Below, piece by piece: positions 6,625-55,426 of a stretch of DNA of 64,000 nt; position 1 is the first letter of the stretch; each line of letters opens with the position of its first letter. Origin of the DNA: an uncultured Gammaproteobacteria bacterium. Its GTDB lineage: Bacteria > Patescibacteriota > Patescibacteriia > S139-126. The DNA lies in contig CAZBLW010000001.1 in NCBI GenBank assembly GCA_964493305.1, forward strand, positions 384,037-448,036, written 5' to 3'. The translations under genes were made by a program, and so were the position numbers. The notes under the pieces are model-generated. The model saw nothing but the letters and a program-made list of their open reading frames with translations. It was not told the origin of the DNA and did not search any database.

Positions 6625-6652
6625 CCCCGGCTTAGGCCGGGGTTTATTTTTT
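6625..6652 (+). terminator. rho-independent terminator (CCCCGGC-TTAG-GCCGGGG + T-run)
   Basis: Perfect 7-bp GC stem followed by TTTATTTTTT. Confidence 0.75.
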
Positions 6653-20801: not shown

Positions 20802-20829
20802 TTGACATCGTATTTTAATGTGTTACAAT
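20802..20829 (+). promoter_or_regulatory. sigma70-type promoter TTGACA-N16-TGtTACAAT (extended -10) for rplJ-rplL
   Basis: Near-consensus -35 and extended -10, about 140 nt upstream of rplJ. Confidence 0.6.
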
Positions 20830-20835
20830 ATTTTT

Positions 20836-20967
20836 ACACCGCAGACAATAGGTTCTATATTGATTAATGCAAGTTTTTGCGCCTATCGAGGTCACAATCC
20901 TTTTTTTGGATCTAGGTCGAGTACCAAGTAAAAGTCTGCGTTTTAACGCAGTTTTTTGTTTATATTT
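20836..20967 (+). promoter_or_regulatory. rplJ (L10) leader with terminator-like attenuator hairpin at 20936-20957
   Basis: About 130-nt 5-prime UTR. CTGCGTT-TTAA-AACGCAG plus TTTTTTG sits just upstream of the rplJ start. This is consistent with L10(L12)4 autoregulatory leaders. Confidence 0.4.
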
Positions 20968-37906: not shown

Positions 37907-37935
37907 TTGACAGAATAGCAAAAATTTGGTATACT
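37907..37935 (+). promoter_or_regulatory. consensus sigma70 promoter TTGACA-N17-TGgTATACT (extended -10)
   Basis: Perfect -35, 17-nt spacer and TGn extended -10, about 25 nt upstream of the 37963 start. Confidence 0.6.
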
Positions 37936-37962
37936 TATAATAAGTAGATAAAAGTTTAAAGT

Positions 37963-39084
37963 ATGCCAGATAATGAATCAATTTTAGAAAAAGTCATTGC
38001 CACTCAAATTAAGGAGGAAAAAGAGGTGTTTAACCCCAAGTTAATTGTGGAAAAATTAGCTGCTGGTTTACCTGATCGAGAAAAAAATGTTATTTATTTA
38101 CGTCATGGTCTCCAGGAGAATTCTGATAAATATACCTTGGAAGACATAGGTAAAATTTATAATATCACCAGAGAAAGGGTCAGACAGATTGAAGTTTCTA
38201 CAATTAAACTGATGAAAAAAAATTTAAAGGCTAACAATGACCTAAATCAATCTTTGTCAGTAGTAGAACAAATTATTAAAGATAGTGGCGGAGTTATTGA
38301 AAATAGTGAGTTAATTGACTTAGTTAAAGGTTCAATTTTAGAAAAAATCGAAACTAATTTTGTAGTTTTTTTCCTGGAGTTAATAAAAGACCAGTTTTTA
38401 CAAGTTAAAGATACTAAAAATATTAAAGCTGGCTGGCAGTTGCCTGGTTTTAATTTAGAAATATTGGAAAATATAATCAGTCAAACCGAAGAAATTGTCA
38501 AAAAAGCTGATAAATTATTTTCTGCTCACGAACTTTGGTTGGCTTTTAAAAATGGTGTTGATATTAAACAGTGGCCTCTAGATTTAAGTGAAGAAATATT
38601 TTTATCTTTTATCAGATTGTCTAAAAAGTTAAAAGTGAATCCTTTCAATGATTGGGGACTTAAACATTGGAATTTGATCACCCCCCGGAGAATGAATGAT
38701 AAAATATATTTAGTTTTGAAACACAATGAGCATCCTTTACACTTTAGAGAGATTGCCAAAAAAATAAATGAAGCCAACTTTGATGGTAAAAAAGCTCACG
38801 CAGCAACAATTCACAATGAACTAATTTTAGACCATAACCGTTACGTACTAATCGGCAGGGGAATTTATGCTCTTAAGGAATGGGGTTATAAACCTGGTGT
38901 AGTAGCAGATGTGATCGAAGATATAATTAAACAATCTGACCAACCCCTTAATAAAAATGAAATAATTGCAGAAGTTTTAAAGAAAAGATTGGTCAAAGAT
39001 AGTACTATTGTTTTGGCTTTAATGAATAAAAAAAGATTTACCAAAAATCATGATGGCACTTATAAATTAGCACAGGATCAATAA
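37963..39084 (+). CDS. protein with N-terminal sigma-70 region 4 (4.1+4.2) HTH fused to about 280-aa uncharacterised domain
   Basis: REKNVIYLRHGL is region 4.1. TLEDIGKIYNITRERVRQIEVSTIKLMKK is region 4.2. No region 2 is present. Confidence 0.5.
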   Translation: MPDNESILEKVIATQIKEEKEVFNPKLIVEKLAAGLPDREKNVIYLRHGLQENSDKYTLEDIGKIYNITRERVRQIEVSTIKLMKKNLKANNDLNQSLSVVEQIIKDSGGVIENSELIDLVKGSILEKIETNFVVFFLELIKDQFLQVKDTKNIKAGWQLPGFNLEILENIISQTEEIVKKADKLFSAHELWLAFKNGVDIKQWPLDLSEEIFLSFIRLSKKLKVNPFNDWGLKHWNLITPRRMNDKIYLVLKHNEHPLHFREIAKKINEANFDGKKAHAATIHNELILDHNRYVLIGRGIYALKEWGYKPGVVADVIEDIIKQSDQPLNKNEIIAEVLKKRLVKDSTIVLALMNKKRFTKNHDGTYKLAQDQ

Positions 39085-39086
39085 CT

Positions 39087-40607
39087 ATGGTGATTGACCT
39101 ATCATTTTTAAATTTAAATCCCAAAATGATTTACTGGATGGTATTAGTGGTGCTGAGTATCTTGGCTCTATTTTTTTTGTATTTTATTTTTAAATTCTTT
39201 ATTCAATTTTTTTGGTTACCAGCCAGAAAAGCCAAATATTTACAAGCAACTAAGTTTATCTTGTTGGCAATTGACATTCCCAAAAACAACGAACAGTCAC
39301 CCAAGGCGGTTGAGCAAGTTTTTGCCACTCTAGCTGGTACATTAAGCGGACCAAATTTATACGAAAGGTATTGGTTAGGCAATCACCAGTTATCATTTAG
39401 TTTGGAATTGGTCAGTCTGGAAGGCTATATCCAGTATATAATTCATTCTCCGGAAAAATATCGTGATGTAGTGGAAGCAGCTTTTTTTGCACAATATCCT
39501 GATGCAGAGATTATGGAAATTCCTGATTATGTGAAAAATTTTCCAGATGATTTTCCCAACGATACTTATGATTTATGGGGGACAGATCTAAAATTGGGCA
39601 ATAAAAATCCTTATCCGATTAGAACCTATCCCAGATTTGAACATACATTATCACAAGAAATAAAAGATCCTTTAGCTTCGTTGTTGGAAGTAATGTCACA
39701 CTTGAGACGGGGTGAATACGCCTGTTTACAATGGGTTATTACCCCCACTGGAGATAGTTGGAAATTACAATGTGAAAAAGAGGTAAAAAAAATAATCGGC
39801 GAAAAAGCCCCAGAAAAAAAAGATATTGGCTATTATATGACTTATCCGTTTTTATCTTTTATGAAATTTTTAGGTGATACCTTGGTTGTAAATGCTGAAG
39901 GTACCGCTGATAATCAGGCAAAGCGTGAGGATGCACCCAATAAAATGTTGTATTTAACCAGTGGACAAAGAGATGTTCTGCAAGGCATTGAAGAAAAGAT
40001 GTCAAAAATAGGTTTTTTAGCCAAGGGACGGTTTGTTTATTTGTCACGACGTGAATTATTTGATAAAAACCGAGGCGTAGCACCAATTATGGGTGGTTTA
40101 AATCAGTTCAATACTCTAAATATGAATTATTTTACCAAAGTGAAAACTACCACTACTACCGCAGATTATTGGCGTGTTGAAAAAAGAATCGCCAAAAAAC
40201 AAACTAAGATAATCAAAGCTTATAAACAGAGAATTGGTGATAGTAAATTTGGCAACAATCCTTTTGTATTGAATATTGAGGAATTAGCTACGGTTTATCA
40301 TTTTCCCGCTATGACCGTAAAAGCACCCTTAGTGAAAAAGGTAGAAAGTAAACGTTCCGAGCCCCCCGCTGCTTTGCCAGTTGATTTTTCTGCAGTAGAA
40401 GCAGATGAAGTCACAGTAGTTTTACCAGCTGAGAAGACTGAGAAAAAAAATGCAGAACCGATTAAAAATGATTCTGCTATGAATGATATTGTAGAAGTAC
40501 AAGTCGTAACTGGAGCTGATCATAAAATTTCTTCTCAGGAAGAAGTTTCTTTGCCCGTTGATGAGCAAGTCAGCAAAGGTCAACCACCAACTAACTTGCC
40601 ATTTTAA
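39087..40607 (+). CDS. hypothetical single-pass membrane protein with large soluble domain, 506 aa
   Basis: N-terminal TM MIYWMVLVVLSILALFFLYFIFKFF. The C-terminal third is low-complexity and acidic/Lys-rich. Confidence 0.5.
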   Translation: MVIDLSFLNLNPKMIYWMVLVVLSILALFFLYFIFKFFIQFFWLPARKAKYLQATKFILLAIDIPKNNEQSPKAVEQVFATLAGTLSGPNLYERYWLGNHQLSFSLELVSLEGYIQYIIHSPEKYRDVVEAAFFAQYPDAEIMEIPDYVKNFPDDFPNDTYDLWGTDLKLGNKNPYPIRTYPRFEHTLSQEIKDPLASLLEVMSHLRRGEYACLQWVITPTGDSWKLQCEKEVKKIIGEKAPEKKDIGYYMTYPFLSFMKFLGDTLVVNAEGTADNQAKREDAPNKMLYLTSGQRDVLQGIEEKMSKIGFLAKGRFVYLSRRELFDKNRGVAPIMGGLNQFNTLNMNYFTKVKTTTTTADYWRVEKRIAKKQTKIIKAYKQRIGDSKFGNNPFVLNIEELATVYHFPAMTVKAPLVKKVESKRSEPPAALPVDFSAVEADEVTVVLPAEKTEKKNAEPIKNDSAMNDIVEVQVVTGADHKISSQEEVSLPVDEQVSKGQPPTNLPF

Positions 40608-40610
40608 TTT

Positions 40611-42419
40611 ATGAAATTTAATCCCGAAGTAACCTATTTTGGAAAAACAAATTTTCGTAACCAAACACGAGAGTTTGGTATTAAGCGTGACGATCGCAGG
40701 CGTCATATGTATGTGATTGGGAAAACTGGTATGGGCAAATCAGAGATGTTAAAAAACATGGCCATTCAAGACATTAACAACGGTAACGGTCTGGCAGTAG
40801 TTGATCCACATGGAGAATTGGTTGAAGATTTATTAAACGCTATACCAGCCCAGCGGATAAATGATGTAGTTTATTTTAATCCAGCTGATGTTGATTATCC
40901 CTTGGCTTTCAATATTTTAGAATCAATTGATGAGCCACATCAGAAAAATTTAGTGGCCTCAGGTTTGATTGGTATTTTCAAAAAATTATGGGCTGATTCT
41001 TGGGGGCCACGTTTGGAATACCTATTACGCAATGCCATTTTGGCATTACTTGATTATCCGGGAGCTACTTTGTTGGGAGTGACAAGAATTTTGGTAGATA
41101 AAGATTATCGTAAAAAAGTTGTAATGAAAATTAAAGATCCGGTGGTGAAAAGTTTTTGGACTCAAGAGTATCCCAAATACAACCAACAGTTCCAGGTTGA
41201 GGCTATTTCGCCAATCCAAAATAAAGTTGGACAATTTTTATCTCTATCTTTAATAAGAAATATTGTTGGACAAGTAAAATCAACTATTGATTTACGTGAA
41301 ATTATGGATAATAAAAAGATTTTATTGTTAAATTTATCTAAAGGTAGAATTGGTGAAGATGCCTCGGCATTATTGGGCGCGATGATGATAACAAAAATTC
41401 AAATGGCAGCCATGGCCAGAGTTGATATTCCTGAGAATCAACGTAAAGATTTTTATCTTTATGTAGATGAATTTCAAAATTTTGTTACTAATTCATTTGC
41501 TGATATTTTATCAGAAGCGAGAAAATATAGATTAAATTTAATAATCGCCCACCAATATATTGCTCAGCTGGTGACCAGTGATTCAACTCGAGTAAGGGAT
41601 GCTGTATTTGGTAATGTCGGTACTTTAGTGACTTTTCGCGTCGGCGCAGATGATGCTGAATTTTTGGCCAAAGAATTTACTCCTACTTTTGATGAAACTG
41701 ATTTAGTAAATTTAGCTAAATACGATGTTTATTTGAAACTGATGATTGATGGTATTGCTTCCACTCCATTTTCGGCAACTACTTTACCCCCGTTGCCTAA
41801 AGACCAAATGAATGAAGATAAAATTATTAAAGTTACCAGAGAAAGATACGCCACCAAACGAGAAATTATTGAAGATAAAATTGCTCGTTGGGCAGGATTT
41901 GGTGATGAAGAAGAACCTGTTGAAAAAAAAGTACCTATAGAGAAAGAACGTGAACCTAAAAAGAAATTAGTTAAAACTGTGGACACTACATCTATTCAAA
42001 CTTATCCGGCCATTTGTAGTAATTGTCAAAAACCAATTAATCTAAAATTCAAACCAGATGGTATTAGACCGGTTTTTTGTCCTGACTGTTTAAAGTTGTA
42101 TAAACAACAAAAAATTTCCTTACCGAAAAACAATCAACCTTATAAAGAAGGTGATATAAAAAACTCTCAGTTAGTTAAAGCTGCTTTTACGCCAGTAAAA
42201 AATAAACCCAACAAAGAAATAATCATTGAGGAAGTTATTAAAGACACTCCAGCAGAAATTTCCTTGGCTGAAGCATTGGGTAAACTACAAATAAGTGAAA
42301 AAGTAGTAAATCCAAAAAAAACAAAAGATAACTCTACTGATTTTAAAGTAGCAGCTGATAAGATTAAACCCCAAACTAATAAACAGACTTTACAACCAGG
42401 TCAAAAAATAAAATTTTAA
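40611..42419 (+). CDS. soluble VirD4/TraD/TraG-like (HerA-FtsK superfamily) P-loop ATPase with C-terminal C4 zinc ribbon and Lys-rich tail
   Basis: Walker A VIGKTGMGKSE. Walker B LYVDEFQNF. ARKYRLNLIIAHQ and GTLVTFRVGADD resemble the TraG-D_C/DUF87 core. CSNCQ...CPDC ribbon. Confidence 0.65.
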   Translation: MKFNPEVTYFGKTNFRNQTREFGIKRDDRRRHMYVIGKTGMGKSEMLKNMAIQDINNGNGLAVVDPHGELVEDLLNAIPAQRINDVVYFNPADVDYPLAFNILESIDEPHQKNLVASGLIGIFKKLWADSWGPRLEYLLRNAILALLDYPGATLLGVTRILVDKDYRKKVVMKIKDPVVKSFWTQEYPKYNQQFQVEAISPIQNKVGQFLSLSLIRNIVGQVKSTIDLREIMDNKKILLLNLSKGRIGEDASALLGAMMITKIQMAAMARVDIPENQRKDFYLYVDEFQNFVTNSFADILSEARKYRLNLIIAHQYIAQLVTSDSTRVRDAVFGNVGTLVTFRVGADDAEFLAKEFTPTFDETDLVNLAKYDVYLKLMIDGIASTPFSATTLPPLPKDQMNEDKIIKVTRERYATKREIIEDKIARWAGFGDEEEPVEKKVPIEKEREPKKKLVKTVDTTSIQTYPAICSNCQKPINLKFKPDGIRPVFCPDCLKLYKQQKISLPKNNQPYKEGDIKNSQLVKAAFTPVKNKPNKEIIIEEVIKDTPAEISLAEALGKLQISEKVVNPKKTKDNSTDFKVAADKIKPQTNKQTLQPGQKIKF

Positions 42420-42422
42420 ATT

Positions 42423-43352
42423 ATGCACCAACTTACTAAACAGACCATAGCCGATATAAAAAATTTAAAAATCCAAGGAGCTACCAATGTAGTCTTAGCT
42501 ATAATCACCACTTTGGATAAATTGATAAAAGAAGTATCTTTTGAAAATTTTTTAGTACTAAAAAAATTTATTTTAGCTGAAACTTGGTTATTGGTTACTG
42601 CTCGACCAACCGAACCGTATGCTCAGAATTTGTACTATTTTTTGAATAAGAATATAAAAAATTTTAATCAACCAAAGGATAATAAAAAATTTAAAAGTAG
42701 TTTAAAAAAGTGGTTACAAGATTACCAAAATTATATTTTAAAAAACGATCTTAAAATTATAAGGTATGGCGTAAAAACATTGCGTCCCTATAAAAATATA
42801 TTAACTCATTGCCATTCTTCTACAGTGGTAAAAATAATCAAGTCGCTCCACCACACCAACAAAAAAATCCATGTGTTTGCAGATGAGACCAGGCCACTTT
42901 TTCAAGGTAGAGTGACTGCGAAAGAGTTACATCAGGCCGGTATCAAGGTAACTCAAATAGCTGATAGTGCAAGTGGTTTTTTGATTTCATCATTCTCAGG
43001 TCGGGATTTAATGATGGAGGCAATAGTGGTCGGAGCTGATGCAATCAAAACTAATGGCAGTATTATCAATAAAATTGGTACTTATGATATTGCTGCCAGT
43101 GCTTTTTTGAATAAAATACCTTTTTACGTAGCGACTAGTCTCTTGAAATTTGATTTTAAAAATCAAGTAAAAATCGAACAAAGATCTGATCGTGAACTAT
43201 GGCCAAATAAACCTGCCAATTTAAATATTCTTAATTTTGCTTTTGATTATGTACCGGCCCAGTTTATTACTGGTTTAATTACTGAGGTAGGTACTGTCAA
43301 ACCTAAGCAAGTCAAATCTTTGGTAAACAAACATTACCCATGGCTAAAATAA
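42423..43352 (+). CDS. ribose-1,5-bisphosphate isomerase (eIF-2B alpha/beta/delta-like family)
   Basis: GADAIKTNGSIINKIGTYDIA family motif. The assignment over MtnA rests on operon context with RuBisCO and AMP phosphorylase. Confidence 0.7.
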   Translation: MHQLTKQTIADIKNLKIQGATNVVLAIITTLDKLIKEVSFENFLVLKKFILAETWLLVTARPTEPYAQNLYYFLNKNIKNFNQPKDNKKFKSSLKKWLQDYQNYILKNDLKIIRYGVKTLRPYKNILTHCHSSTVVKIIKSLHHTNKKIHVFADETRPLFQGRVTAKELHQAGIKVTQIADSASGFLISSFSGRDLMMEAIVVGADAIKTNGSIINKIGTYDIAASAFLNKIPFYVATSLLKFDFKNQVKIEQRSDRELWPNKPANLNILNFAFDYVPAQFITGLITEVGTVKPKQVKSLVNKHYPWLK

Positions 43353-43957
43353 AAGATGATATCCAGTATGTAGTCTTTGATATTTATGGGGTAATCATAA
43401 CTGCTGGCCACAATATTAGGGATATATTATTTCCGATATTTCCTAAACACAAAAGTCATCGTTTTAGTCGTCGTATCTATCACTATTATGCAGAAAATAA
43501 ACTAAAACGAGCCAACTTTTGGTCACTACTGGGAAATTTTGATAGTTCTTTGGAAAATAAATTTTATGAACGACATCGTTTGGATAAAGATTTTTATCAA
43601 GTTATTGAGCAGTTAAAAAAGCAAAGTAAAAAATTGTATATTTTATCCAATATTCCTCAGGAATGGTCAGAATATTTAAATAAAAAGTTTAAGTTTGATA
43701 AGTATTTTTCTGGTACTGTTTTTTCTTGGCAAGTTGGTAAACGTAAGCCCGATCCAAAAATTTTTAACTATTTAGTTAAAAAATATACTTTACCAGTAGG
43801 TAAAACTTTGTTTATTGATGATAATATTGATAATATTAGAATGGCTAAACGTTTGGGTTTTAGGACTTGTTGGTTCAATCGAGATAAGATCGACCTTAAA
43901 CCCACTAGTGCCGATTTTATAATCAATGAATTAAAAAAATTAATAGAAATTATATGA
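43340..43957 (+). CDS. HAD-IA family hydrolase with variant motif I (DIYG)
   Basis: Motif I VVFDIYGVI, motif II YILSN, motif III KRKPDP, motif IV FIDDNIDN. Confidence 0.6.
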   Translation: MAKIKDDIQYVVFDIYGVIITAGHNIRDILFPIFPKHKSHRFSRRIYHYYAENKLKRANFWSLLGNFDSSLENKFYERHRLDKDFYQVIEQLKKQSKKLYILSNIPQEWSEYLNKKFKFDKYFSGTVFSWQVGKRKPDPKIFNYLVKKYTLPVGKTLFIDDNIDNIRMAKRLGFRTCWFNRDKIDLKPTSADFIINELKKLIEII

Positions 43958-45246
43958 AAAAATTTACCACTTCATATCAGGGTTTTATAGATCAAAAATA
44001 CAAACCCAATTTAGACAAAGAATTTTTAGTTACTTATCATGTTAAACCTACTCCGGGGCAAACATTTGAAACGGTTGCCGAGGCCATAGCTGGTGAATCA
44101 TCAATAGGTACTTGGACTCATTTGGAAACTCTCTCGGTTGCTACTAAAACAAAATTAACACCTCATGTCTATGTAGTTGATAAAAATCGTGGTTTTATAA
44201 AAATTGCTTATCCTTTAGCATTGTCTGAAATTGGTAATCTACCCCAGTTATTGTCCTTTTTAGGTGGTAATATATTTAGCATGAAAATAGTCGACCGTTT
44301 ACGTTTGGAAGATATTGAGTTTCCCAAAAAATATATTAATGCTTGCTTAGGTCCTTATCATGGCATAGCCGGTATCAGAAAAATAATGAATGTTAAACAA
44401 AGAGCCTTAGTTGGCAGTATAATCAAGCCCAAAGTTGGTTTGGATGTAACTGAAACCGCTGCGGTTGCTTATGAAACCTGGCGGGGTGGGGTAGATGTAA
44501 TTAAAGATGATGAAAATTTAACTTCACTGGTTTTCAATAATTTTAATGATCGCGTTGATCAATTAATAGCTACTAGAAAAAAGGTTGAAAAAGAAACTGG
44601 CGAAAAAAAAGTTTTTGTTTTCAATATAACCGCTCCTTATGATGTTGCGCTACAAAGAGCTCGTTATGTAAAAAAAAGAGGAGGACGAGTGGTTATGGTT
44701 GATATTGTCGCTATGGGTTGGTCAGCTATTCAAACCATCAGAAAACAAAATTTAGGCCTAATCTTACATGGTCACCGGGCGGGACATAGTATGTTTACCA
44801 AAGATCCTAGTCACGGGATGAGTATGTTGGTGCTGGCAAAGTTATCCAGACTTGCCGGTATTGATCAATTACATACCGGTACAGTGGTTGGTAAAATGGA
44901 AGGCACGGCTCATGAGGTTGATTCTTTGAATGATTTTTTGCGAGAGGATGGCGGAGAAATTGATTATTTAAGAGAGAATTGGTCAAAATTAAAACCAGTA
45001 ATGCCAATTGCCTCAGGCGGGCTACATCCCGGCTTGGCCGCGGAACTGATAAAAATTTTGGGTCGTAATTTAATTATTAATTTCGGTGGTGGTATTCATG
45101 GTCATCCCAACGGTTCTTTTGCTGGTGCTGTTGCTGCTCGTGACGCGGTTGAAGCAGCTTCTCTGGGAGCAAATTTACATACCTATGCCAAAAATAGACC
45201 AGAGTTAAAAACAGCTCTTGAGTATTGGTCTAATGTAAAAAATTAA
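43954..45246 (+). CDS. rbcL: ribulose-1,5-bisphosphate carboxylase large subunit, form II/III type
   Basis: GGVDVIKDDE, IKPKVGLD, ILHGHRAGH and the GG loop. Confidence 0.85.
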   Translation: MKKFTTSYQGFIDQKYKPNLDKEFLVTYHVKPTPGQTFETVAEAIAGESSIGTWTHLETLSVATKTKLTPHVYVVDKNRGFIKIAYPLALSEIGNLPQLLSFLGGNIFSMKIVDRLRLEDIEFPKKYINACLGPYHGIAGIRKIMNVKQRALVGSIIKPKVGLDVTETAAVAYETWRGGVDVIKDDENLTSLVFNNFNDRVDQLIATRKKVEKETGEKKVFVFNITAPYDVALQRARYVKKRGGRVVMVDIVAMGWSAIQTIRKQNLGLILHGHRAGHSMFTKDPSHGMSMLVLAKLSRLAGIDQLHTGTVVGKMEGTAHEVDSLNDFLREDGGEIDYLRENWSKLKPVMPIASGGLHPGLAAELIKILGRNLIINFGGGIHGHPNGSFAGAVAARDAVEAASLGANLHTYAKNRPELKTALEYWSNVKN

Positions 45247-45258
45247 TAATTAATAAAA

Positions 45259-46758
45259 ATGTCCTTTTTCTTAAAATCAAAAAAATTGGATTTTTCCACG
45301 GGAAATGAACCGGTGGTAGTCATAAACGATCAAGAAGCCGAATTTTATGGGGTAATAGCCGGTGATAGAATTCAGTTGACTTGGGATAAGCGTACCAAAA
45401 GAATTGCTGAAGTCAGAACAACTACCAGTAAAGTTAAACCAGGGGAGTTGGGTTTGTTTAAAGAGTTATGGAATAAAAAAGATGTACCAGCCAATGGTGA
45501 TATAGTTGAGGTGGAAATTGTTTCCCGACCACCGTCAATTCAAGCCATTAGAAAAAAGTTATTTGGCAAAAAATTGAACTATGAAGAAATTTACTCAATT
45601 ATCAAGGACATAGTTGATGATCGTTTATCTGAAATCGAGACGACTTACTATGTAGCTTCTAGCTATTTGCGTGATTATACTTTAAACGAACTTTATTACA
45701 CTTCCAAAGCAGTAGCTGAGACTGGCGAAATGCTCAATTTAAATGTACCGGCAGTTGATAAACACTCAGTTGGAGGGTTACCGGGAAATCGAACTACTAT
45801 GGTAGTTGTGCCAATAGTTTCTTCATTGGGATTATATATACCCAAAACATCTAGTCGGGCAATTACTTCACCTTCTGGTACAGCGGATACCATGGAAGTT
45901 TTAGCACCAGTAACCTTTACCATGTCGGAGATTAAGAAAATTGTAAAAAAAGTTAATGCTTGTATGGTATGGGGTGGAGGGGTCAATTTAGCGCCTGCTG
46001 ATGATAAAATTGTCCGTCTTACCAGGCCATTAGGAATCGAACCATATGATAAAATGATTGTTTCTATTATGGCTAAAAAGGTAGCCATGGGTGTTGATTA
46101 TTTGGTACTTGATTTACCGATTGGTCCCACTACAAAAATTCCGCAAAAAAAATTTGCAGATGAGATTGAAAAAAAATTTATGTTTTTAGGAAAAAAATTT
46201 GGTATGAAGGTTAAGGTTATTAGGACGCCATCTTTTGAACCAGTGGGTAGAGGTATAGGTCCAGCTCTTGAGGCTAGGGATGTATTGCGAGTTTTGCAAC
46301 AAAAAGAATTGCGACCGATTGATTTGGAAAAAAAGGCTATTAGATTGTCAGGTTATTTATTGGAATTAGCTGGTTACTGTAAGGTTGGTCAAGGTGCTGC
46401 CATAGCTCAACGTCAATTAATTAGTGGCGAGGCAGATAAACAGATGAAAAAGATAATATCGGCTCAAGGAGGTAAGGCAGATATTGATTCCGATGAGGTA
46501 GCTTTGGGCGCTTTAAATTATGAAATTCATGCTAAGAAGAGCGGTCAGATTAATTTTATAAACAACCGTGCCATCAATGAAATTTGTGTAAATCTAGGAG
46601 CACCAGGTGATAAGATTGCCGGTATTCATATGCATGTTCATTATCTTGACAAAGTAAGAGTGAAAGATAAACTTTTTACTCTTTATGCTCAGAGTCAAGA
46701 TCGTATCAAGCTAGCGCTCAAAGCTTTAGAAAAAAACGTAATTGTTGAAATTAAATAA
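45259..46758 (+). CDS. AMP phosphorylase (thymidine phosphorylase family, DeoA homolog with N-terminal extension)
   Basis: TP-family core DKHSVGGLPGNRTT. At 499 aa it matches the archaeal AMPpase size. Confidence 0.75.
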   Translation: MSFFLKSKKLDFSTGNEPVVVINDQEAEFYGVIAGDRIQLTWDKRTKRIAEVRTTTSKVKPGELGLFKELWNKKDVPANGDIVEVEIVSRPPSIQAIRKKLFGKKLNYEEIYSIIKDIVDDRLSEIETTYYVASSYLRDYTLNELYYTSKAVAETGEMLNLNVPAVDKHSVGGLPGNRTTMVVVPIVSSLGLYIPKTSSRAITSPSGTADTMEVLAPVTFTMSEIKKIVKKVNACMVWGGGVNLAPADDKIVRLTRPLGIEPYDKMIVSIMAKKVAMGVDYLVLDLPIGPTTKIPQKKFADEIEKKFMFLGKKFGMKVKVIRTPSFEPVGRGIGPALEARDVLRVLQQKELRPIDLEKKAIRLSGYLLELAGYCKVGQGAAIAQRQLISGEADKQMKKIISAQGGKADIDSDEVALGALNYEIHAKKSGQINFINNRAINEICVNLGAPGDKIAGIHMHVHYLDKVRVKDKLFTLYAQSQDRIKLALKALEKNVIVEIK

Positions 46759-52277: not shown

Positions 52278-52305
52278 TTGACACTTTTTTCTTTTCTGTT
52301 ATAAT
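52278..52305 (+). promoter_or_regulatory. sigma70 promoter TTGACA-N16-TGtTATAAT (extended -10) for the infA operon
   Basis: Perfect -35 and extended -10 about 100 nt upstream of infA. Confidence 0.6.
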
Positions 52306-53677: not shown

Positions 53678-54292
53678 ATGGGAAGATATTTAGGACCAAA
53701 AGATAAGTTATCTAGACGAGAAGGTGTTAATCTTTTTGGCAAAGCCAAAAGCCCTTTGCAAAAAAGAAATTATCCACCGGGAGTGCACGGGCCGAGTCAA
53801 CGCGTGAGATTATCTACTTATGGTCAACAATTGAGAGAAAAACAAAAAGCTAAGAGAATTTATGGTTTGCTGGAAAAGCAGTTTGTTAATTATTATGAAA
53901 AAGCTTTAACTAGAAAAGGTGATACTGGTGAAATTTTAGTGCAGTTATTGGAATCAAGATTGGATAATTTGGTTTATCGTTCGGGCTTGGCTGAAACTAG
54001 AGCTCAAGCCAGACAGTTAGTAACCCATGGTTTTTTTGAAGTAAACGGTAAAAAAGTTGACATACCTTCCTTTAATTGTAAAGTAGGCGATGTTATAAAA
54101 GTTAAAGACAATAAAGCCAATAAAAACTTCATTAAAGAGGCAGTCAAGAAATGGCCCAATAAGCAAGAAATTGCCAATTGGTTAGCTGTCGATTTTAAGG
54201 CTTTATCTTTTAAGGTAGTGACCGTTCCGGTAATTGATCAACAGGCTTTGTTGTTTGATACCAGAGCAATAATTGAGTTTTATTCTAAATAA
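53678..54292 (+). CDS. rpsD: 30S ribosomal protein S4
   Basis: MGRYLGPKDKLSRREGVNLF. Confidence 0.9.
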   Translation: MGRYLGPKDKLSRREGVNLFGKAKSPLQKRNYPPGVHGPSQRVRLSTYGQQLREKQKAKRIYGLLEKQFVNYYEKALTRKGDTGEILVQLLESRLDNLVYRSGLAETRAQARQLVTHGFFEVNGKKVDIPSFNCKVGDVIKVKDNKANKNFIKEAVKKWPNKQEIANWLAVDFKALSFKVVTVPVIDQQALLFDTRAIIEFYSK

Positions 54293-54308
54293 TATTGATA
54301 AAATTTTT

Positions 54309-55064
54309 ATGTCTATTATACCATTGCCAAACAAAATAACCTGGGAAGAAACAGGTGCCAATGAAGCTAAACTAATCGTTGAACCATGCAGTGCTGGTTA
54401 TGGTACTACTTTAGGTAATGCTTTACGTCGAGTTTTATTATCGTCATTGCCAGGAGCAGCTGTAACCAAAATGAAGGTAAAAAAAGTGGATCACGAGTTT
54501 TCAACTATTCCTGGGGTTAAGGAAGATTTAGTTGAAATAATGTTGAATTTAAAAAATTTAAGACTAAAAAGTCAATCAGCTGAACCAGTAAAAATTCATT
54601 TAAAAGTCAAAGGTAAGGTAGGAGAAGTAAAGGCAAGTGAAATCGAAAAAAATGCTGATGTTGAAGTGATTGATAAAGATTTCGTGATTGCCACGGTAAC
54701 TGATAAAAAAGCTGAATTGGATATTGAAATGACAGTGGAAAAAGGTTTTGGTTATTTACCAGTAGAAGATAGAAAAAATGAAGAAAAAGAGGTAGGAATT
54801 ATTTATTTAGATGCCTTTTTTTCTCCAGTAAAAACCGTAGGTTTTGAAGTTACCCCGGCTCGTGTTGGTCAAGACATTAATTTTGATCGTTTGACAATGA
54901 ATATCGTAACCGACGGTTCAATTGCTCCAAAAAATGCTGTTGATTTTGCTTTGTCTATTTTATTGGAACATTTTCAATTATTGAAAGAAAATTCAGGTGT
55001 TAATGACACCACTCAAGTTAAAAGCAAAGAAAAGTCTAAAAAGAAATCAGTTGAAAAAGAATAA
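54309..55064 (+). CDS. rpoA: DNA-directed RNA polymerase alpha subunit, N-terminal domain only (no alpha-CTD)
   Basis: The alpha-NTD is conserved to about aa 225. Then a 25-aa Lys/Ser tail follows. Start refined to 54309 (ORF track 54273 overlaps rpsD). Confidence 0.8.
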   Translation: MSIIPLPNKITWEETGANEAKLIVEPCSAGYGTTLGNALRRVLLSSLPGAAVTKMKVKKVDHEFSTIPGVKEDLVEIMLNLKNLRLKSQSAEPVKIHLKVKGKVGEVKASEIEKNADVEVIDKDFVIATVTDKKAELDIEMTVEKGFGYLPVEDRKNEEKEVGIIYLDAFFSPVKTVGFEVTPARVGQDINFDRLTMNIVTDGSIAPKNAVDFALSILLEHFQLLKENSGVNDTTQVKSKEKSKKKSVEKE

Positions 55065-55072
55065 GCGATTTT

Positions 55073-55426
55073 ATGAAACATTTACATAAAGGTAAAATTT
55101 TCAAAAGAAAAGTTGGTCCGCGAAATTTGATGTTACGCAATTTGGCGGAAAGTTTGATATTGTATGAACGTGTCAAAACTACAGCTGTAAAAGCCAAAGC
55201 TATTCGATCTAAAGTTGAGCCAATGATTTCTCGAGCTAAAAAAGACAATTTACATAATCGTCGTTTGATCATGAAGAGCTTATTTACAGACAACGCAGTG
55301 AAAAAAATATTTGAAGTATTGGGACCACGGTATCTTGATAGAAAAGGTGGTTATACGCGTATCTATAAATTAAACCCCCGACGAGGTGATGGTGCTGAAC
55401 AAGTTATTATTGAGTTAGTTAAATAA
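55073..55426 (+). CDS. rplQ: 50S ribosomal protein L17
   Basis: RNLMLRNLAESLILYERVKTT. Confidence 0.9.
   Translation: MKHLHKGKIFKRKVGPRNLMLRNLAESLILYERVKTTAVKAKAIRSKVEPMISRAKKDNLHNRRLIMKSLFTDNAVKKIFEVLGPRYLDRKGGYTRIYKLNPRRGDGAEQVIIELVK

Follow-up and report, generated by a model that had tools for sequence, protein, structure and literature searches.

Bacterial promoter recognition is taught as the task of the sigma factor alone, whose region 4 sits on the β flap of RNA polymerase (RNAP). In the complex of sigma region 4 with a -35 element (1ku7), the contact residues equivalent to R584, E585, R586, R588 and Q589 of Escherichia coli sigma70 are those which read TTGACA. Aravind and Iyer (2012, Cell Cycle 11:119) are said to have described bacterial proteins with the winged-helix domain HARE-HTH that combine sigma-factor and alpha-subunit features. 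The N-domain of the RNAP delta subunit docks on RNAP between the β′ shelf and jaw (PMC7749165), the HARE-HTH of ASXL1 binds duplex 6mA DNA in vitro (PMC6591016), and the domain is a predicted reader of modified bases (PMC10853773).

A gene carrying both sigma region 4 and HARE-HTH, SEML1_0294 of Ca. Southlakia epibionticum ML1, is listed by Wang et al. (2023, Cell; PMC10633639) in their supplementary material, where its 349-aa product is annotated 'RpoS'. The tables place PF04545 at residues 27-72 and PF05066 at 225-283, give a DPAM parse into sigma-4 plus three 'winged' domains, and set both the 'core family' and the 'Patescibacteria enriched' flags to 1. In Tn-seq the gene was scored ES/ES/ES over three passages, the 24 insertions in the input DNA falling to 1, 1 and 2 recovered, whereas SEML1_0293, the next gene downstream in the same orientation, whose 921-aa product has a TrwB domain at 402-719, was non-essential (82 input insertions; 87, 120 and 110 recovered). 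A separate complete RpoD, SEML1_0063, is also essential in this organism (PMC10633639). Neither locus tag is named in the main text of Wang et al., where the word 'sigma' turns up just as the name of a reagent supplier.

The DNA analyzed here, called the window, is a 64-kb stretch that contains an AMP-salvage RuBisCO cluster, in keeping with a genome of the candidate phyla radiation (CPR), a group of ultra-small bacteria. One of its genes (Table 1) encodes a 373-aa protein in which Pfam detected Sigma70_r4 (PF04545) at residues 34-85 (50.9 bits, E 1.1e-13) and HARE-HTH (PF05066) at residues 247-307 (37.1 bits against a gathering score of 25.9, E 4e-9); by these profile matches the protein is a member of both domain families. 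Residues 31-85 were about 40% identical to domain 4 of SigA/sigma70 in a search of PDB sequences, and the sigma-70 region 4 that an earlier note had recognized in this DNA was confirmed as a genuine, group-1-type one. The note had also found regions 2 and 3 to be missing and had named LuxR/GerE as an alternative identity of the HTH. No match to sigma region 2 (PF04542), region 3, Sigma70_r4_2 or GerE (PF00196) was obtained with Pfam at E≤1, and the HTH is not of the LuxR/GerE type; the NCBIfam models of RpoD, RpoS and RpoH aligned to the protein solely via their last 60-75 positions. The NCBIfam model of the low-GC RNAP delta subunit (TIGR04567) covered residues 244-307 at 31.8 bits, below its cutoff of 42. 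The rest of the chain, previously described as an uncharacterized domain of about 280 aa, turned out to be four tandem winged helices including the HARE-HTH.

Table 1. Coordinates in the window of the promoter, the sigma4-winged-helix gene and its encoded domains, and the two genes downstream.
Feature	Coordinates	Strand	Remarks
Sigma-70-type promoter	37907..37935	+	-35 TTGACA (37907-37912), 17-nt spacer, TG (37927-37928), TATACT (37930-37935)
CDS, sigma4 plus four winged-helix protein	37963..39084	+	373 aa plus stop
N-terminal helix (residues 6-24)	37978..38034	+	Family-specific S-I-L-[DE]-x-V motif; conservation, AlphaFold2
Sigma region 4 (4.1-4.2; residues 25-91)	38035..38235	+	Recognition helix TRERVRQIE, residues 69-77
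Winged helix 1 (residues 92-162)	38236..38448	+	Acidic, variable; AlphaFold2, order H-E-H-H-E-E
Winged helix 2 (residues 163-240)	38449..38682	+	Acidic, variable; AlphaFold2, DPAM parse of the SEML1_0294 equivalent
Winged helix 3, HARE-HTH (residues 241-310)	38683..38892	+	Basic; Pfam PF05066, conservation
Winged helix 4 (residues 311-373)	38893..39081	+	Basic
DUF8128 membrane protein	39138..40607	+	Downstream gene 1; 489 aa as called, ORF open from 39087
TrwB/VirD4-type P-loop ATPase with C-terminal treble-clef zinc finger	40611..42419	+	Downstream gene 2; Pfam TrwB_AAD_bind, TraG-D_C, zf_Tbcl_2

The AlphaFold2 model, for which 58 homologues were used as input (pLDDT 91.7, pTM 0.81), consists from N to C terminus of a helix at residues 7-22, modeled at a lower pLDDT of 54-71, the sigma-4 helices at 25-90, and four winged-helix units of order H-E-H-H-E-E at 92-160, 165-233, 244-304 and 314-369, the third being the HARE-HTH (pLDDT >90). 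The top whole-chain Foldseek match was 1lva, the four-winged-helix fragment of SelB (E 2e-4), and further matches were to winged-helix modules of UFL1/DDRGK1, Dcc1 and TFIIIC; the matches to winged-helix arrays had TM-scores of 0.2-0.27 and identities of 8-12%. The SelB C-terminus shares with the protein its four consecutive winged helices, and TFIIE/Rpc34-type initiation factors, from archaea and eukaryotes, share a tandem arrangement of such units. This SelB/TFIIE-type resemblance is one of architecture and not homology with a shared function.

Compared with a group-1 sigma factor (RpoD/SigA), the protein lacks regions 1.2, 2 and 3, and therefore cannot bind the clamp helices or melt the -10 element. 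It also differs from sigma70 in having an additional conserved N-terminal helix, and the opening helix of the winged-helix array takes the place of the C-terminal helix that follows region 4.2 in sigma70. With the delta subunit (RpoE) of Bacillota it has the HARE-HTH winged-helix fold in common (PF05066), but it falls below the TIGR04567 cutoff, is twice as long, comes from a different taxon and carries the domain internally instead of at the N terminus. Moreover, delta has a polyanionic C-terminal tail, the part of that protein which displaces nucleic acids, whereas the window protein ends in a folded basic winged helix. Judged by its domain content, the protein is thus not a sigma factor, as it has no region 2, nor is it delta, given the subthreshold score and the missing acidic tail, and its likeness to delta stays at the level of the domain family. 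ASXL1 and the restriction endonuclease fusions carry the same HARE-HTH domain family, but the window protein has no nuclease, methylase or chromatin module, and the partner domain is sigma-4.

One homologue search returned more than 5,600 matches to the protein. In a second, seeded from a locus of another subfamily (L011), at least 7,998 of the 8,000 candidates scored E≤1e-20, and this search recovered the Nomurabacteria/Paceibacterota subfamily only, without reaching the Southlakia protein. The best 120 homologues of each listing all carried the same Pfam pair and were 340-405 aa long. When the winged-helix part was used as query, 452 clusters (50%-identity representatives) matched at E≤1e-30, nearly all of them 340-410 aa long, with the match starting near residue 80-115 and the same layout. 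Over the searches together, homologues that agree in Pfam pair and length form a series from 100% down to 30% identity. That hundreds of clusters share one length speaks against gene truncation, in line with the earlier note.

Among the matches listed, all named full-length homologues belonged to Patescibacteria/CPR (Parcu-, Komeili-, Nomura-, Doudna-, Falkow-, Kaiser-, Peregrini- and Saccharibacteria), and non-CPR genomes matched only via region 4 of ordinary sigma factors; on these matches, the family is likely restricted to the CPR. A phage or other mobile origin was considered and rejected: just one viral-labeled contig carried a full-length relative, at 29% identity, and the remaining viral matches were to phage sigma region 4. 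The earlier note had not recognized the combination of domains as a named family. The Sigma70_r4 and HARE-HTH pair is in fact already present in Pfam-based annotation, without an assigned function, and the architecture can be read from database entries and from one supplementary table; apart from that table, no paper in the literature searched treated the family, and none assigned it a function or mechanism. The window protein is a member of an unnamed, Patescibacteria-enriched core family.

The conservation of residues placed on E. coli sigma70 by PDB alignment and known numbering was scored over 132 diverse cluster representatives. The equivalents of E585, R586, R588 and Q589 were present in all 132 and that of R584 in 131, a positive outcome of the check on -35 contact residues that the note had proposed. 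L573 was likewise invariant (132/132), and the equivalents of R562 (130/132), T583 (129/132) and R554 (R or K; 127/132) were nearly so. The basic patch that contacts activators (K593, R596, K597, R599) was kept only in part. That the contact residues stay invariant throughout a radiation of phylum rank agrees with a target which, like the -35 element, is not free to drift, and we infer from it that the protein binds -35-like DNA with TTGACA-type specificity. Outside sigma-4, the HARE-HTH was the most constrained domain, with 41 of 70 columns at least 90% conserved and a mean charge of +4.8, and the basic character extended to sigma-4 itself (+3.2) and to winged helix 4 (+3.5). In winged helix 1 only 6 of 71 columns reached that level and the mean charge was -3.4; in the N-terminal helix S6, I7, L8 and F23 did so. 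Strong purifying selection on the family is evident from these alignments.

SEML1_0294 is the probable counterpart of the window protein by architecture, length and synteny, and not by sequence alignment: the same Pfam pair lies at matching positions and a TrwB-domain gene follows on the same strand. The two loci differ in that this neighbor is a single gene in Southlakia, whereas the window has two, DUF8128 and the ATPase; from its length and the position of its domain, SEML1_0293 is apparently DUF8128 fused to the ATPase. Since SEML1_0293 is non-essential, polarity does not explain the essentiality of SEML1_0294; for the family, essentiality is known from this one species. The label 'RpoS' for SEML1_0294 is a misnomer. 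We also considered that the protein might stand in for a missing alpha-CTD, since RpoA of the window organism has no CTD, yet Southlakia has both the alpha-CTD and the protein, and the idea was dropped as a general explanation.

The promoter ends 27 nt before the ATG. It had been called a perfect consensus promoter; the promoter is there, but it agrees with the consensus at 11/12 positions and has an extended -10 in addition. Of 19 orthologs, 17 had a TTGAC(A/T)-N17-TGn-TATAnT promoter with at least 10/12 matches in the roughly 110 nt before the gene, and 18 had an upstream TTGAC -35 element. In the window, the TTGACA-N16/17-TGn-TATAAT type also occurs at 20802, before the L10 leader (Rfam RF00557, 20821-20967) and rplJL, at 52278 before the infA-rpmJ-rpsM cluster (12/12 plus TG), and before alaS and other genes. 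By this comparison the promoter is of the organism's ordinary strong housekeeping type, and its sharing a class with ribosomal-protein operon promoters implies high constitutive expression. When the 19 ortholog promoters were aligned on the -35 element, only the -35, TGn and -10 signals were conserved and no extra operator was found; extra TTGAC/GTCAA sites were not significant, 14 promoters containing 6 of them where the background rate was 0.25 per 120 nt. With so generic a promoter, the note's suggestion that the protein regulates itself through its own -35 element gained no specific support.

Eighteen loci with a full-length ortholog, drawn from across the radiation, were compared. In 17 of the 18 the gene that comes next in the same orientation encoded a DUF8128 membrane protein, and in 11 of the 18 a TrwB/VirD4-type ATPase followed it; two orthologs (L016 and L087) had no ATPase neighbors. 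The gaps to DUF8128 were short and contained weak promoter matches only, suggesting that the sigma4-winged-helix gene is probably the first of a transcription unit. The window ATPase gave weak PDB matches to TrwB and DotL, and DUF8128 has a VirB4 N-domain-like fold; by its domains, the conserved cluster headed by the sigma4-winged-helix gene contains a split VirB4/VirD4-like ATPase.

Among the best 150 representatives, two were long. One (P0478, 659 aa) joins SecF to the sigma4-winged-helix protein and may be a read-through, the SecF gene being the usual upstream neighbor of the family. The other (P0496, 800 aa) contains Sigma70_r2, r3 and r4 and, behind these, another r4 and a HARE-HTH. Its ORF is unbroken in the standard code and was seen on 5 contigs, which come from no fewer than 2 assemblies of groundwater metagenomes. 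The N-terminal part scored best against RpoD/RpoS models, the linker retains the SIL-type N-terminal motif of the family ('DCILKLQD'), and both recognition helices have diverged (TRQRIQQIK and PKSVLNVMIDD). From this layout P0496 is a complete RpoD/RpoS-like sigma factor joined to a complete sigma4-winged-helix protein, not an untruncated ancestor. The earlier note had held that homologs with regions 2 and 3 would indicate truncation; such homologs do exist, in this one lineage, but their two copies of region 4 identify a fusion. P0496 thus shows that truncation of a sigma does not account for the family, and it suggests that the protein is functionally tied to sigma; coming from a single lineage with diverged helices, it is a hint of that link and not proof. 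As the sigma part's own region 4 would hold the β flap and the -35 element in P0496, the second sigma-4 would have to bind elsewhere.

The analysis establishes the domains of the protein and their fold, the conserved residues, the distribution over taxa, the synteny and the essentiality of the Southlakia counterpart, and beyond these we infer a DNA specificity, an association with RNAP and a role in initiation. The protein is probably an uncharacterized core transcription factor rather than a sigma factor. More specifically, we tentatively favor, at a little under an even chance, a transcription factor that is abundant, essential and specific to its lineage, binds DNA of the -35 type and works together with the sigma-A holoenzyme. 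The sigma-4 domain would grip duplex DNA as region 4.2 of a primary sigma does, with TTGACA-type specificity, the acidic winged helices 1 and 2 would serve as a spacer, and the basic, near-invariant HARE-HTH and winged helix 4 would provide another contact, to a partner as strongly conserved. Since the HARE-HTH fold is used by delta for docking on RNAP and by ASXL1 for binding duplex DNA, this partner could be the RNAP core or flanking promoter DNA. RNAP has its flap and its jaw at opposite ends and the protein is compact in the model (pTM 0.81), so at most one canonical RNAP contact would be retained, and it could presumably not reach both the flap and the shelf/jaw sites. Read as a Rosetta-stone fusion, P0496 would place the protein next to sigma at promoters. 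There, at housekeeping promoters and together with the sigma-A holoenzyme, it would be a general initiation co-factor that marks or stabilizes the -35 and upstream DNA without replacing sigma. CPR β and β′ are also flagged as Patescibacteria-enriched families, which makes a lineage-specific RNAP partner plausible. Among the points against this co-factor model, it does not say where the protein's own sigma-4 binds if sigma-A region 4 holds the -35 element, and the near-universal adjacency to DUF8128 and the T4CP-like ATPase is not explained by a general role in transcription.

Two other readings tie the protein to its cluster. It could be a dedicated repressor of its own operon that occludes its own -35 element and is essential because derepression of the membrane ATPase would be toxic. 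The gene heads its cluster in 17 of 18 loci, with the short gaps and weak internal promoters noted above, and the TTGAC -35 element is all but constant upstream. We nevertheless consider this improbable: its own promoter is of the generic housekeeping type, with neither a conserved flanking operator nor a significant second site, so that a reader of TTGACA could not single it out from the rest, surfaces near-invariant across a phylum are rare for local repressors, and neither the sigma fusion nor the orthologs without ATPase neighbors would be explained. Alternatively, the protein could be a DNA-recognition adaptor comparable to TrwA/TraM, steering a VirB4/VirD4-like DNA translocase to specific duplex sites. 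The synteny kept throughout the phylum, the TraG-D_C ('TraM recognition') region and zinc finger of the ATPase and the fold of DUF8128 agree with such a role, and so does the abundance of orphan VirD4-like genes in Patescibacteria, where just 148 of 5,713 such genes in 2,918 genomes lie near virB4 and exaptation to other functions has been suggested (PMC12102498). In Southlakia, on the other hand, the ATPase is non-essential and the sigma4-winged-helix gene essential, so the main role of the protein cannot depend on the ATPase. An adaptor would moreover have no reason to retain an exact -35 specificity, and the sigma fusion points to transcription; the adaptor therefore seems to us very improbable.

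A more general antagonism of sigma has also to be weighed, in which the protein would coat TTGACA sites in the manner of a nucleoid protein or would place its sigma-4 on the β-flap tip and antagonize sigma-A like an anti-sigma factor or appropriator. The intact sigma-4 fold and the strong expression implied by the promoter would suit a competitor. The hydrophobic spacing of the amphipathic N-terminal helix (i, i+1, i+4, i+5) is that of the flap-tip helix, whose motif is LLxxIF, and the flap groove may accordingly be used or self-occupied. A decoy acting on the flap only, one of the roles that the earlier note had envisaged, would need no invariant DNA-contact residues and does not account for them. 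A protein that did nothing but antagonize the housekeeping sigma would not normally be essential, and in P0496 the sigma's own region 4 would take the flap. We regard the competitor or decoy as having a small probability. Lastly, automatic labels such as 'sigma factor RpoS' and 'sigma-70 family sigma factor' invite the view that the gene is a decayed or truncated sigma gene or a mis-called ORF. This we consider hardly credible and reject, given the size of the family, the uniform length and architecture over thousands of sequences, the high-confidence AlphaFold2 model, the strong purifying selection, the essential Southlakia counterpart and the separate RpoD (SEML1_0063) of that organism.

A stronger form of the preferred co-factor reading, which we hold to be possible but rather unlikely, makes the protein an essential lineage-specific general initiation factor, in effect an extra RNAP subunit that would be seated on promoter DNA beside sigma-A, as P0496 would suggest, and be needed for most housekeeping transcription. 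If true, it would be, in its logic, a bacterial counterpart of those archaeal and eukaryotic initiation factors that are built of tandem winged helices, and a new basal transcription component in a radiation that holds a large share of bacterial diversity, and it would help to account for part of the 'essential unknown' gene set of the CPR. The HARE-HTH might in addition make promoter use sensitive to DNA modification. As a genetically tractable Saccharibacterium carries the gene, the question is open to direct test.

Database labels on family members include 'HARE-type protein' and 'sigma factor-like HTH DNA-binding protein', and, for some members, 'sigma factor RpoS', 'sigma-70 family sigma factor' and 'delta subunit' (JGI). 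As the protein belongs neither to the sigma factors nor to delta, such labelling inflates the apparent number of sigma factors in CPR genomes.

The housekeeping promoter of the source organism is TTGACA-N16/17-TGn-TAnAAT, as defined from six promoters of the window, namely the two ribosomal-protein promoters in the table and those at positions 6651, 24112, 48770 and 63807. Among the ortholog promoters of the sigma4-WH gene, an obvious palindrome was found only at the Peregrinibacteria locus L016, where the inverted repeat TTGACAC-N6-GTGTCAA includes the -35 element and extends into the spacer. This locus also lacks the neighbouring DUF8128 and ATPase genes.

Features in the window and at loci carrying sigma4-WH relatives
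Feature	Location	Remarks
Sigma-70 promoter, near-perfect, extended -10	window 20802-20967 region	ahead of L10 leader/rplJL
Sigma-70 promoter, near-perfect, extended -10	window 52278-52305	ahead of infA-rpmJ-rpsM-rpsK-rpsD-rpoA-rplQ cluster
Peregrinibacteria ortholog promoter with inverted repeat	L016:380-453	
Sigma + sigma4-WHx4 fusion ORF, uninterrupted	L087:5001-7403	800 aa; also L088, L089
Full-length sigma4-WH relative	L090:4001-4954	IMG/VR 'viral' contig
AMP-salvage RuBisCO cluster	window 42423-46758	immediately 3' of ATPase gene
rpoA	window 54273-55064	rplQ starts at 55073

A fusion form of the family comes from groundwater metagenomes (L087, L088 and L089); that of L087 joins a complete RpoD/RpoS-like sigma factor (r2, r3 and r4) to a complete sigma4-WHx4 protein, both recognition helices being diverged, with ParB encoded upstream and DUF8128 absent downstream. 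A single ORF of 659 aa (P0478) comprises SecF and the sigma4-WH protein. Since SecDF is the usual upstream neighbour of the sigma4-WH gene in many CPR loci (L004-L006), this joining may reflect read-through or an error of assembly, and not a genuine fusion.

The L090 relative (29% identity over residues 15-367) is the only full-length one on an IMG/VR 'viral' contig. This contig may have been misclassified and belong to CPR, or else the copy may be prophage-borne. The L011 ortholog groups with a subfamily of 343-aa proteins, sharing 76-100% identity with them, and the named proteins of this subfamily are from Nomurabacteria/Paceibacterota; the label of the L011 record, 'uncultured Candidatus Saccharibacteria', looks doubtful as a taxonomic assignment.

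The RuBisCO cluster encodes an e2b2/IF-2B-like isomerase, a HAD hydrolase, a form II/III-type RuBisCO and an AMP phosphorylase-like protein, neighbours found again in L004 and L005. The window RpoA consists solely of the N-terminal dimerisation and insert domains followed by a short lysine-rich tail; the alpha-CTD (PF03118) is absent from it, and the space before rplQ is too small for one. The RpoA of the Saccharibacterium Ca. Southlakia epibionticum retains the CTD, indicating that this loss is lineage-specific.
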